IMG/VR virus record: IMGVR_UViG_2859810971_000004
Source: a virus
Lineage: Duplodnaviria > Heunggongvirae > Uroviricota > Caudoviricetes
DNA: 24,933 bases
Direction: 5' to 3' (one strand)
Shown one piece after another: positions 21,001 through 24,933 of the stretch; the stretch's first letter is position 1; each line of letters begins with the position of its first letter. Made by a program: the position numbers.

Positions 21001-24000
21001 TTCAGGCGCCTGTCGTAGCGGCGTATTTCTCCGTCAGGTAATGACCAGATAAGGTCCGGATCAACAACAACCGGTTTCCTCACCTTTACTCTCGAGAGTT
21101 TTTTGCGGGCGCTTTGCCAGTCCTTGCGAGCCTGTTCAGACGGGAATAAGCCGTAGCCAGAATTATATACATCACCACTTGCGACCAGTTCTATGCATAA
21201 GCGACCGACAGACGCACGACTGATACCTGTTTCATCGGACAACTGCCGAATCGTGACCCGACCGTCCTGATGCACGAGTTCCACAATTCGCGTCTTCAGT
21301 TCTTCCCGCTGTTCGGGAGTAAAAGGTTTCGCCATAAATCCTCCTGAAACTACTTAACAACCCTCGAATGGCTAACATTCGGACGCCAGCTCTCCCAGTT
21401 AAAATTCACCCAGCGCCCGCCGTTCATGACCATGCGATCCATCACCCGCTCGCCGAGAAGTGTATTCATCGCTGCATGGTTAATATTTGTCAGCATCCCC
21501 ACACCGCGTAACGATGCCGTCCGGCGATCAACAATCTGGTTCAGTACCACCTGCTCGTTTTTCGTATCCCGCTGCATGCCAATTTCATCCAGGACCAGCA
21601 GGTCAACACCACAAAGCTCCTGTAAAAATTTTTCACCGGATTTGCCGTTGTCGTAGCTCTCATGCAACACGCTCATGACATCGGACACGGTGACGATAAT
21701 CACGCTACGCCCCTTCGCCATCAGCCGGTTGCCAATCGCGGCTGCAAGATGATTTTTTCCGGTGCCGGGCTTACCGCTGAACACAAAATTCGTACAGCCT
21801 GTCATCAGTTCGTCAGCTATGGATTTCGCCTGACTCAGTGCATGTCGCTGACCGTCGTTCTGCGCCCGGTAATTCGCAAACGAACACTTCCGGTGCAACG
21901 GCTGGATGCCGGAGCGGTTCAGGATTTTTTCCACCCGCAACTGACGATTCAGGCGGTTGATCTCCTCGCAACGTTTCTGGCCTTCAGCAAGTTGCCACTC
22001 GCGCCACTCCGCAACCGTTCTGAATGGGGCGGTTACATGTGGTGGGGTCAGTCTGCGGATACGCTCCAGAACGCCTCCTGTCGCAATATTTTTCATGGTC
22101 TGTTACCCCCTGAAGCCTGGCGGGATCGCACTGTCCGGCAACGAGACGGTGTTAACCTGTCGGAGCAACGTCTCAGGCCGAACACCTTTCGGCGCGAACA
22201 GACCCTGGTATTCATTGGCGATGCTGTGTCGAATCACCTGCTCAGGTGTAAAACCCTGCTGACGGAATTTTTCCAGTTCCCGTATCGCCCCGTTAGCGCC
22301 CAGCTCCGTTCGAATCGGTTTTCGCAATGCCTGCCTGAACTGGACCCACTCATGCCAGAGTGTTTCTGGCAACCAGTCGGGCAGATCAACTGACAACGGG
22401 TCAAATTTTTTCTGGCGAACAGCCCCACCGATAACCAGAATTCCCTGCTCGGTGTGCCTTGCGATATCACTGCGCCGCAAGACACATATCCCGGTTTCAA
22501 CAGCACCGATTTTGAGCAGTGATTTCTGTCGCGGAGAATTTCGGTCAAGCTCGATCCCACACCGGACACCGTTCCTGTCAGTCACGACGATATCAATCCG
22601 CCCTCCGCAACCGTCACCACGCTCTGGCACCGGATACTCACGACAGACATCCAGGCCAGCAGCCTGCAACGCAACCACCGCAGAATTACAAAATTCCGCT
22701 GCAGTACCGCCAGATAATCTCCCCTCAAGCACTCCAGCCACAAAATCCCGAAACTCCCTTCCGGAAGGGAAGGGTTTGGGATGGGTTAGATCTGTTTTTA
22801 GATCTTTATCTGTATCTTTATTAGTTGCCTTTGTGTTGGCATCTAGACTGGCCCCCTGAATCTCCAGACAACCAGTATCACTTATTTAAGTGATAGTCTT
22901 AATACTAGTTTTTAGACTTGTCATTGGAGAACAGATTATTGATGTCTTAGGGCCGGAGAAACGCAGACGGCGTACCACACAGGAAAAGATCGCAATTGTT
23001 CAGCAGAGCTTTGAACCGGGGATGACGGTCTCCCTCGTTGCCCGGCAACATGGTGTAGCAGCCAGCCAGTTATTTCTCTGGCGTAAGCAATACCAGGAAG
23101 GAAGTCTTACTGCTGTGGCCGCCGGAGAACAGGTTGTTCCTGCCTCTGAACTTGCTGCCGCCATGAAGCAGATTAAAGAACTCCAGCGCCTGCTCGGCAA
23201 GAAAACGATGAAAAATGAACTCCTCAAAGAAGCCGTTGAATATGGACGGGCAAAAAAGTGGATAGCGCACGCGCCCTTATTGCCCGGGGATGGGGAGTAA
23301 GCTTAGTCAGCCGTTGTCTCCGGGTGTCGCGTGCGCAGTTGCACGTCATTCTCAGACGAACCGATGACTGGATGGATGGCCGCCGCAGTCGTCACACTGA
23401 GGTGTACTGGCAATAGCGGACACTACCATTTGTTCTTTTTTAAGCAGCCATCTGATGATATTTTTCCCTGAAGGCTGCCGGGGAGATATTCCCCAGACGA
23501 GAGTGACGACGCTGACGATTGTAGAAAATCTCAATGTATTCCCGTATTACTGAGATGGCTTCATCCCGGTTATTAAAACGATAGTGGCTCAGGCTCTCAT
23601 TTTTCAGCGTTCCCCAGAAGCTTTCCATCGGAGCGTTGTCGTAACAGTTACCTTTACGCGACATTGATGTTTTCAGACCAAACTGCTCCTGTATGACCCG
23701 GTAATCGTATGCGCAGTACTGTGAACCTCGATCAGAGTGGTGGATTAGCCCGGCAGGTGGGCGCTGGCTCCTGAGCGCCATAAACAGGGCTTTACCTGTC
23801 AGCTCTTTTGTCATGCGCTCTCCCATGGCGTAGCCGACAATTTCACACGTATAAACATCTTTGATGCCAGCGAGGTACAACCATCCCTCCTGTGTGGCAA
23901 CATACGTCAGGTCCGCCACCCAGACCTGATTTGGTGCTGTAGGAGCGAACGTCTGGTTCAGCAGATTTGGCGCAACTGGCAGATTGTGGTTCGGGTTCGT

Positions 24001-24933
24001 AGTCGCTCTGAACTTGCGTTTCTGCTTACAGCGTAGCCTCAGCTCCTTACGAAGACATGCCAGTCGGTCACGACCAACGATGATGCCATTCTCTGCCAGC
24101 TCCGTCTGGAGCCGCCGGGTTCCATATGTTTCGCGAGTGCGGATATGTGCCACCTTAATCTCCAGTTTTAGCCGCTCATCACTTTGTTTTCTGTCTGAGG
24201 GTTCATGCTGTACCCAGTTGTAATAACCGCTCCTGGATACACCAAATACCTGACACATCGCTTCAATGGGAAATTGTTGTCGCCATTGTTCGATTAACGC
24301 GTATTTTTCAGCGACTCCTGTGCAAAATACGCTGTTGCTTTTTTTAATATATCGCGCTCAAGGCGAGCTTCATTTAACGCCTTACGCAGTTGCAGAATTT
24401 CAGATTCCAGTTCAGCCACCGTGCGGGAACCAGGAGTACCGAGCCCTTTTCTGGCGGCGGTAACCCATTGTCCTAAAGTGCCTTCAGGAAGGGATAATCG
24501 GGAAGCGCCTTCACTGATCGAAAGTTGATTTTCAAGAACCGTTCTGACAGCTTCGGCTTTGAACTCTTTAGAGTAACGTTGGGTTTTTCTGCTCATTATT
24601 AGCTCCTTCTGATGCCATTCTATTTCAGGAAGGAGTGTCCGTTAAACTCAGGCTACCTCAGGTTTCGATCACTTCCGGCAGCGAGCCGCTACGTGAAAGG
24701 GTGATGACTTTGGTGTTATGAGCGTCTTCTTCCACGGGCACTTGTTTAACGGTGATACCTGGGTTTTCTTTTTCAAAACGGGCAATCAATTTGCTGATAA
24801 CTGCCTGACGCTCCTGCTCCACCGAAGAATGCATAAATTCGATGGATACATGGGTTTTATTTTCTTCTTTACAGCCTGAAATCAGGGCGCAGGAAACCAG
24901 TGCTGATAACAGCACGATTTTTGATTTAATCAT

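Follow-up and report, generated by a model that had tools for sequence, protein, structure and literature searches.

An IS600 copy between truncated ycjN and ydaU-type genes of a Shigella flexneri-type chromosome probably marks a 25.7-kb deletion

Homologous recombination between insertion sequence (IS) copies has been measured in E. coli and is a common source of deletions (Lee et al., 2016; PMC5009759). In Shigella, such recombination is accepted among the causes of gene loss (Hawkey et al., 2020; PMC7373316), and the pathogenicity island of pINV has been lost between IS copies (PMC5629016). Known E. coli and Shigella deletions that arose between direct IS copies share several features with the locus described here: a single IS is left, its flanks come from two targets, no target duplication is present, the ancestral collinearity is kept, and the lost DNA consists of dispensable metabolic genes of a host-restricted pathogen. 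Unlike in those cases, one apparent endpoint here lies inside another IS, which is itself within a prophage gene. Another described system is that of E. coli producing Shiga toxin (STEC), in which IEE promotes deletions flanking IS3-family elements (Kusumoto et al., 2011, as cited in PMC9397093). As far as that citing account goes, IS600 is a reported substrate and, as at our locus, the IS is retained and adjacent DNA is lost; an IEE mechanism would not be needed for the structure reported here. The prophage part of the locus is most like the Rac prophage of E. coli K-12 (ydaS-ydaT-ydaU-ydaV), which agrees in gene order, in orientation with respect to ycjN and in having a ydaV-like helicase-loader gene next to the initiator gene.

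We analysed a DNA stretch of 24,933 nt (the window; IMG/VR record IMGVR_UViG_2859810971_000004). From 22103 to 24933 it carries, in order, a fragment of a ydaU-type replication gene, a fragment of IS2, a complete IS600 (copy 5 of the window) and a fragment of ycjN (Table 1), none of which is a chance resemblance. The initial annotation, made from the sequence, had described this nesting order and named both truncated genes; its anatomy proved real and accurate to the base, with all four pieces where it had placed them and both genes correctly named. The junction is a passive scar that insertion sequences have left in the S. flexneri-type chromosome CP026810.1, without a function of its own, and the kind of event is already known as routine Shigella genome decay. 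A literature search by accession returned no mention of CP026810.

Table 1. Features at and beside the junction (window coordinates).
Feature	Position	Strand	Details
ydaV-like DnaC/IstB-type helicase-loader gene, 248 aa, intact	21350..22096	-	Pfam IstB_IS21 1.2e-18, Bac_DnaA; E. coli matches annotated 'ydaV: ATP-binding protein'
3' portion of YdaU-family (DUF1376) prophage replication-initiator gene (ydaU')	22103..22843	-	codons 154-399 + stop
The 5-bp IS2 target duplication, of which one copy is left	22839..22843	.	plus-strand GCATC (GATGC when read along the gene)
IS2 fragment, 554 bp starting at the left terminal repeat	22844..23397	+	orfA (136 aa called, 22890-23300) and orfB start; about 777 bp missing
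IS600 copy 5, complete, 1263 bp	23398..24660	-	both terminal repeats; orfA 24294-24596, orfB 23440-24258
TGA stop ending the truncated ycjN frame	24658..24660	-	made of the three outermost bases of IS600 at its left end; sequence read directly
ycjN codons 1-91 (signal peptide and start of ABC-transporter substrate-binding protein)	24661..24933	-	window ends at ATG

The minus-strand frame ending at 22103 was open through 22843 and continued for 14 further codons into IS2; its first in-frame start was a GTG at 22741. This agreed with the earlier description of a replication gene with no start codon that stays open to the IS2 boundary, the native ATG being absent. The DNA from 21900 to 22843 was 99.9% identical to E. 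coli FDAARGOS_944, which has an intact 399-codon ORF; 246 of the 399 codons are kept in the window, and the ATG and the first 153 codons are not. DUF1376 (PF07120) occupies residues 22–104 of the 399-aa homologue, and the whole domain is missing from the fragment. The retained C-terminus matched phrog_6451 ('primosomal protein', 5e-39) and phrog_678 ('replication initiation O-like', 5.6e-23), and no Pfam or NCBIfam family. The 'O-like' label given previously is apt by function and position, as judged by the phrog_678 label and the DnaC-type loader next door, but by family the gene belongs with the YdaU/DUF1376 initiators of Rac-type prophages. Membership of the lambda O family was rejected: the only Pfam family was DUF1376, found in the full-length homologue. 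The window thus holds the C-terminal domain and the position upstream of a DnaC-type loader that characterize YdaU/DUF1376 initiators, and lacks the N-terminal domain. What it carries is a fragment of such a gene and no working initiator, and with neither the DUF1376 domain nor the start, the prophage replication module would be dead.

The full-length homologue was 96% and 89% identical to K-12 Rac YdaU (the 285-aa type) over its N-terminal 171 and C-terminal 102 residues, respectively. It differs from the K-12 type by a 126-aa segment where the latter has 12 aa. The window departs further from K-12 Rac, as only the last 246 codons of the gene are retained and the left arm of the S. flexneri prophage (int to ydaT) had already been deleted earlier, beside an older IS600.

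The IS2 fragment begins with TAGACTGG at 22844. Its left terminal repeat (TAGACTGGCCCC), its orfA and its identity to known copies assign it to IS2, with 554 of about 1331 bp present; E. coli matches were annotated 'IS3-like element IS2 family transposase', and an HTH_Tnp_1 domain was found. It was identical at 555/556 positions to a full 1330-bp IS2 elsewhere in the window (12492–13821). That copy was considered as the source of the missing half and rejected, as it carries its own GCTGC duplication. The breakpoint between IS2 and IS600 is ambiguous over 23398–23400, a 3-nt TGA common to both. Two relatives (L005 and L006) have a full IS2 at exactly this site with GATGC on both sides; the copy in the window has no right end. 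The 5' part of the replication gene was not lost to the IS2 insertion: S. flexneri relatives show a clean insertion with the GATGC duplication and with the 5' part across IS2 (20 places listed).

IS600 copy 5 starts with TGAGG and ends with CCTCA. The element is about 1264 bp with terminal repeats TGAGGTAGCC... and ...GTACACCTCA, and copy 5 agrees with this in length and ends, having one A/T fewer in a homopolymer run. Both reading frames were intact (orfA, 100 aa, HTH_Tnp_1 1.5e-20; orfB, 272 aa, rve 3.1e-26), a programmed frameshift is annotated in an IS600 homologue, and the identity to an annotated IS600 in E. coli was 99.3%. Copy 5 differs from the four other copies of the window at a handful of 14 variable columns; with just these 14 columns among seven IS600 copies, a mosaic structure of copy 5 was not demonstrable. 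Its flanks read CAC and GGT on the plus strand, that is, ACC on the ycjN side and GTG on the IS2 side in the orientation of the IS, and do not form a 3-bp duplication. Copies 1 and 2 of the same window have perfect 3-bp duplications (GTT and GCA, respectively); copies 3 and 4, located between pphA and the prophage, are also without duplications. The mismatch of ACC and GTG means that copy 5 is no simple insertion cutting both neighbours. The statement that copy 5 cuts IS2 at about 554 bp and ycjN after codon 91 thus gave the right breakpoints; copy 5 is an IS600, but judged by its flanks it is not an unrearranged insertion. The flanks of the other four IS600 copies in the window matched neither the ACC-ycjN nor the GTG-IS2 side as a partner junction.

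The ycjN fragment was 99.6% identical to annotated ycjN over 273 bp (E = 3e-138), with a weak SBP_bac_1 match, and its 91-aa ORF spans 24658–24933. Upstream, beyond the end of the window, puuE, pspF, pspABCDE and ycjM follow the K-12 order, with collinearity reaching ycjN nt 273, and the gene was identified by this psp-ycjM synteny together with its sequence identity. In the closest relative, ycjN has a stop after codon 209, and it had probably become a pseudogene before it was disrupted.

Comparison with relatives placed the two flanks of copy 5 on one ancestral segment. The ancestral S. flexneri order is psp, ycjM::IS1, ycjN, ycjO...tyrR...pgrR', IS600, ydaU 5' part, full IS2 with its GATGC duplication, ydaU 3' part and ydaV; the portion from pgrR' to ydaV was seen at every one of the 20 places listed in further S. 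flexneri genomes. In contig AMKF01000030.1, the closest relative, identity is 99.95% on one side and 99.88% on the other, and psp, ycjM::IS1, ycjN ... pgrR', IS600 and ydaU::IS2 lie collinear on this single contig. Homology to it ends exactly at ycjN nt 273 and restarts at IS2 nt 554; 25,703 bp are missing from the window, with one IS600 in their place. The ancestral order and orientation are kept on both flanks for at least 8–10 kb, and from ycjN to pgrR the genes of K-12 follow this order too, with Rac oriented alike. The locus therefore has what a deletion between direct IS copies should leave, namely one IS whose flanks derive from two ancestral sites that lie collinearly, with one orientation, in relatives. 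The missing DNA comprises the rest of ycjN, ycjO to ycjV, ompG, ycjW, ycjX, ycjF, tyrR, tpx, ycjG, mpaA, ycjY, pgrR', the older IS600, the ydaU 5' part and the IS2 3' part. It is the collinearity that suggests loss of these 25.7 kb from the genome, as opposed to relocation.

Taken as three simple nested insertions, with this junction bringing ycjN into the pphA region, the locus would have the order of pieces described above, and pphA and ycjN are indeed 549 kb apart in K-12 but only 24 kb apart in the window. One insertion cannot have two targets, however, and copy 5 lacks a duplication; moreover, ycjN and the ydaU prophage share one contig in the closest relative, and collinearity with K-12 from pphA ends at window position 2365, with the duplication-less copies 3 and 4 in between. 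This reading, refuted by the flanks of copy 5 and the architecture of the relatives, is hardly credible. Three successive events are also too few: at least four are needed, namely the entry of IS2 into ydaU, that of one or two IS600 copies, and the 25.7-kb deletion. As for the claim that a gene distant from pphA was brought in, the distance in K-12 stands, and the import would not have occurred at this junction, given the shared contig and orientation in the closest relative. The distance from ycjN to the Rac-type prophage in K-12 is about 40–50 kb, and ycjN and the Rac-like prophage remnant are native neighbours, apparently joined here by an IS600-associated deletion. The proximity to pphA arises at other IS junctions, within 2366–15095 of the window, not at that of copy 5.

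That same part of the window contains a Rha-family gene (11653–12285). It was 86–90% identical to the Rha region of E. coli relatives, compared with 98.6–99.9% for the replication region. It was considered as part of the lost left arm of the same prophage and rejected on this lower identity; it thus comes from a different phage remnant.

We consider it likely, with a probability of roughly 0.75, that IS600 copy 5 marks a 25.7-kb deletion between a dead ycjN and the IS2-in-ydaU site, arising most likely by recombination of two direct IS600 copies. First, as the relatives show, IS2 entered a decayed Rac-like prophage, splitting its ydaU-type gene between codons 153 and 154 and producing the GATGC duplication, a state common to many S. 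flexneri genomes. Two IS600 copies of like orientation may then have inserted, one at nt 554 of that IS2 and the other behind codon 91 of ycjN. Recombination of the two direct copies, most likely RecA-dependent, would have removed the intervening 25.7 kb and left one hybrid IS600 with flanks from different targets. The outcome would be the loss of the ycj sugar-utilisation operon and a truncated ycjN that ends at the TGA in the IS600 end.

The same outcome, one complete IS600 with unrelated flanks, would be expected if a single IS600 (in the simplest case in ycjN) had been followed by a transposase-driven or IEE-type adjacent deletion from its right end into IS2, with no second copy and no homologous recombination. 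The 3-nt TGA microhomology between the IS600 end and IS2 nt 555–557 fits such an end-directed deletion too, although this overlap is weak, with a chance of roughly 1 in 64. A precursor with IS600 in IS2 was not found in the collections searched, which would also agree with a single copy. IS3-family elements move by a copy-out, paste-in route via a circular intermediate, and this route does not normally delete neighbouring DNA. IEE is reported to delete regions flanking IS3-family elements, including IS600, but iee is described on SpLE1-type elements of STEC (PMC9397093). In addition, IS600 is dense locally (five copies in 25 kb), so that a second copy would have been easily available. We hold an end-directed IS600 or IEE-type deletion in place of a RecA-dependent one to be a tentative option, and the version with a single IS600 to be unlikely.

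Recombination of two direct copies should have had precursors with IS600 in ycjN, or in IS2 at nt 554, with both junctions; none was found in the collections searched. Of 5,426 complete E. coli genomes searched with 200-bp queries for both IS600 junctions, none had a place reaching at least 80% coverage. Exact junction patterns gave 0 matches in GTDB species representatives and JGI metagenomes, a weak negative, as these sets probably do not include Shigella, and the deletion from ycjN codon 92 to IS2 nt 555 was not found in any other genome searched.

The 25.7 kb might instead have been moved or inverted elsewhere by an IS600–IS600 exchange, the junction being one end of the rearrangement. Shigella chromosomes are rich in IS-bounded inversions, and the window has two further IS600 copies without duplications. 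An inversion or translocation would leave reciprocal junctions, either the IS600 right end ...CCTCA-ACCAGCCATGAC or the IS2 3' part before TGAGG. The flanks keep the ancestral order and orientation, a pattern that a single inversion would not give. Among the matches listed, the ydaU-5'/IS2 fusion ORF showed no altered context and did not occur in CP026810.1, and a search for the leftover ycjN 3' product gave nothing relevant; both are weak negatives. Relocation is thus quite improbable compared with deletion.

Even less probable is a collapse in assembly, by which two direct IS600 copies that flank the 25.7 kb were merged into one. Exactly the same picture would be expected, and the exact 91-aa ycjN' ORF is on record from this one assembly only. 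The record, however, is a closed 4.53-Mb chromosome, in which a leftover unique segment of 25.7 kb would normally be noticed, and 1.26-kb repeats are easily bridged by long reads. In a separate short-read S. flexneri assembly of the window's own lineage, an 863-bp contig runs from an IS1 end to ycjN nt 270. Such a break is expected if a repeat abuts the site, and it gives independent support to the ycjN side of the junction only.

The value of the locus is mainly one of bookkeeping, as it adds to the record a 25.7-kb loss, specific to the strain, from an S. flexneri-type chromosome. It also provides a rule for reading nested IS fragments: a complete IS without a target duplication indicates a recombination or deletion junction, not an insertion. 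In annotation, ydaU', the IS2 fragment and ycjN' should be flagged as pseudogene or IS fragments.

Position 273 of ycjN may, on a tentative view, be a recurrent IS target. Eighteen contigs end inside ycjN with a 90-residue YcjN fragment, and 5 places listed stop at nt 270–272; the 863-bp contig from the window's own lineage is a further case. If all those breaks were IS600 ends, they would point to a sequence-specific hot spot at which IS600 had landed independently in several Shigella/E. coli lineages; the alternative is one insertion spread by recombination. Four of these five aligned to the S. flexneri relative with 95.7–99.8% identity, some of them having an intact ycjM and one a frameshifted ycjM.

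The truncated YcjN product (91 aa) at the right end of the window has been recorded from a single assembly, GCA_002949455.1, whose chromosome (CP026810.1) is 4,531,304 bp long. Returned coordinates placed the window at about 2,113,204-2,138,136 of this chromosome, in the same orientation. The junction proteins were identical or nearly identical to entries named 'Shigella flexneri' in the source databases, and IS600 occurs five times in the window, alongside an ipaH effector gene; thus, we infer an S. flexneri-type chromosome.

The fifth IS600 copy (copy 5) is complete: its two terminal repeats are present, and neither orfA nor orfB is disrupted. 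Insertions of IS3-family elements are expected to produce 3-bp target duplications. Read in IS600 orientation, copies 1 and 2 are flanked by such duplications (GTT/GTT and GCA/GCA), but the bases next to copy 5 differ, being ACC towards ycjN and GTG towards IS2. Since a single insertion cannot leave unrelated target sequences at its two ends, copy 5 is a junction formed by rearrangement, and the initial annotation's single insertion that cut both IS2 and ycjN is refuted. Different single-base deletions leave copies 4 and 5 at 1263 bp each; that of copy 4 cuts orfB down to 269 aa, and that of copy 5 falls outside the ORFs, in an A/T run close to the right end.

Coordinates of features in and around the junction
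Feature	Window	Strand	Details
ipaH	2942-4657	+	Intact 571-aa IpaH-family type III effector E3 ubiquitin ligase gene (NF046045, 7.7e-170)
Duplicate of IS600 right end	9068-9084		17 bp
IS600 copy 3	9085-10348		Flanks AAC/ATT
Full IS2	12492-13821		1330 bp, flanks GCTGC/GCTGC
IS600 copy 4	13833-15095		Flanks ACC/TAC
Truncated ydaU	22103-22843	-	Codons 154-399
126-aa segment of ydaU	22216-22593	-	Residues 172-297 of 399-aa homologue (L002 6204-7403)
IS2 fragment	22844-23397		554 bp
IS600 copy 5	23398-24660		1263 bp
Truncated ycjN	24661-24933	-	Codons 1-91

The IS2 fragment opens with TAGACTGGCC... and is the same as the full IS2 at 555 of 556 positions. The match runs up to 23397, and the next three bases, TGA, are common to IS2 and the IS600 end. 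On the other side, the TGA stop of ycjN comes from the IS600 end. The coordinates first reported, and the lengths of about 554 bp of IS2 and 91 codons of ycjN, were correct. The full IS2 interrupts a phage regulator gene of the Rha family, has a perfect 5-bp duplication and lies 11 bp from IS600 copy 4; in the GGGG run near the orfA end, it is one G shorter than the fragment.

The truncated replication gene is open from its stop at 22103 to the IS2 boundary, as initially described, and for 14 more codons within IS2; the earliest possible start is a GTG at 22741. At 21900-22843, the DNA shares 99.9% identity with E. coli FDAARGOS_944 and strain VL40, in which the gene runs 459 bp further as an intact 399-codon ORF, so that the window keeps its last 246 codons. 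PGAP names these counterparts 'YdaU family'. In the full-length protein, DUF1376 covers residues 22-104, and identity to the common 285-aa YdaU is 96% at one end and 89% at the other. The gene belongs to the YdaU/DUF1376 family of Rac-type prophages. The retained 246 residues had no match in Pfam or NCBIfam; their C-terminal 100 residues matched phrog_6451 'primosomal protein' and phrog_678 'replication initiation O-like', and a DnaC/IstB-type loader gene follows directly. The earlier name 'O-like' is thus apt for function but not for family. PGAP splits the intact E. coli ORF into two partial 'YdaU family' pseudogenes. In this variant, a segment of 126 aa takes the place of 12 aa in the common YdaU; the segment carries a GRIDIVV...IELD motif, and its match to the restriction-endonuclease-like Pfam family MTES_1575 was insignificant (E = 0.23).

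Relatives were looked up with two queries, the 212-aa ORF within the truncated gene and an ORF in which the 5' part of ydaU is fused to the right end of IS2. The S. flexneri assemblies matched include CP026871, CP026772, CP026788, CP026793, LR213452, CP178302, CP034931, CP044155, CP044158 and LM651928. Among the matches listed, 20 of 20 places had the order tyrR, tpx, ycjG, mpaA, ycjY, truncated pgrR (160 aa), IS600, ydaU 5' part, full IS2, ydaU 3' part, ydaV. Since relatives (loci L005 and L006) have IS2 at the window's exact site between two GATGC copies, its insertion is an older event common to many S. flexneri genomes, which split ydaU and did not remove its 5' end. The IS600 between truncated pgrR and ydaU, ancestral in S. 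flexneri, has no target duplication (AAG/GGA; L014 6697-7961; L005, L016 and others as well). It records an older deletion in which, relative to K-12, mppA through ttcA were lost along with the Rac-like prophage's left arm (int to ydaT).

The closest relative, contig AMKF01000030.1 of GCA_000815805.1, matches the window's genome at 99.95% identity across 10.8 kb towards ycjN and at 99.88% across 3.4 kb towards the prophage. This single contig carries puuE, pspF, pspABCDE, ycjM::IS1, ycjN, ycjO through ycjV, and then truncated pgrR, IS600, ydaU::IS2 and ydaV. Homology stops at ycjN nt 273 (contig 150,722) and restarts at IS2 nt 554 (contig 176,426); thus, the window's genome is short of 25,703 bp and has one IS600 instead. 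In the relative, ycjN has a premature stop after codon 209 (L041 10533-11165), and ycjM is broken by IS1 just beyond the window (L001 7533-9987), indicating that the ycj operon was already decaying in this lineage before the deletion. The stumps of IS2 and of ycjN, by then a pseudogene, were probably joined by a later 25.7-kb deletion associated with IS600. Collinearity suggests that the 25.7 kb was truly lost from CP026810.1; no displaced ydaU-5'/IS2 fusion ORF was found among the matches listed, nor any ycjN 3' product, each lending slight support to loss.

The most economical history would have three stages: IS2 entered ydaU, as relatives show; one IS600 then inserted into IS2 at nt 554 and a second, in the same orientation, into ycjN after codon 91; and homologous recombination between these direct copies would then have removed one IS600 together with the DNA between them. 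In E. coli, deletions of this IS-IS kind arise often, at 4.5e-5 per genome per generation, and new insertions favour nearby sites (PMC5009759); such deletions are regarded as one of the main ways in which Shigella loses genes (PMC7373316). One insertion followed by an end-directed deletion would give the same product and would fit the 3-nt TGA overlap, and IEE-type activity on IS3-family elements, IS600 included, has been described (PMC9397093); we consider this route less likely than recombination between two copies. A precursor genome deciding between the two was not found in the collections searched. The structure and nesting order given in the initial annotation are confirmed and its interpretation is supported in part; the simple IS600 insertion and the import from afar do not hold. 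The junction is without function and is an ordinary, well-known kind of IS-driven decay in Shigella.

Both copy 5 junctions were absent from 5,426 complete E. coli genomes, GTDB representatives and JGI metagenomes. In an independent short-read S. flexneri assembly (GCA_017209215.1), an 863-bp contig runs from right after the ycjM IS1 to ycjN nt 270, with 99.88% identity to the window's genome. This is the product expected of a repeat abutting the ycjN site and supports that side of the junction; for the IS2 side, the evidence is the closed assembly itself. In short-read assemblies of S. flexneri, one contig of about 22.5 kb typically spans the interval from the ycjM IS1 to the pgrR IS600, and therefore ycjN is normally IS-free in this species. 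Eighteen contigs have a 90-residue YcjN fragment ended by the contig end. Five of the 18, among the matches listed, end at ycjN nt 270-272; four of these five, when aligned, represented lineages 95.7-99.8% identical to the S. flexneri relative, with ycjM intact in some and frameshifted in one. One more contig comes from the window's own lineage. This pattern (loci L035-L039 and L043; window 24661-24663) suggests that a repeat, possibly IS600, abuts exactly ycjN nt 270-273 in several lineages; if so, the site may be an insertion hot spot, or an insertion may have spread.

K-12 has ycjN (1,371,909), pgrR (1,391,991) and Rac (1,411,899-1,434,958) all oriented as in the window. The import of ycjN from afar at copy 5 is thus contradicted; ycjN and the ydaU prophage are native neighbours. 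The claimed closeness of pphA is real but arose in window 2366-15095, not at copy 5. In K-12, pphA (1,922,313) is 549 kb away, with a relative orientation opposite to that in the window. The window opens with yebW and pphA broken by IS600 copy 1, and K-12 collinearity of the pphA/sdsR region ends at 2365. Right after it comes an island with ipaH, followed by IS600 copy 2, an IS66-family element, IS600 copy 3, a Rha-type phage fragment, the full IS2 and IS600 copy 4. Copies 3 and 4 lack 3-bp duplications and therefore mark further rearrangement junctions; together with the ipaH island, they likely brought pphA close to the ycjN/Rac-like block. The two blocks are inverted relative to K-12, which would be compatible with a large IS-bounded inversion across the terminus region. 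The duplicate of the IS600 right end, TGAGGTGTACTGGCAAT, directly adjoins the right end of copy 3 and may be a remnant of a second IS600 end or the outcome of insertion into an IS600 terminus.
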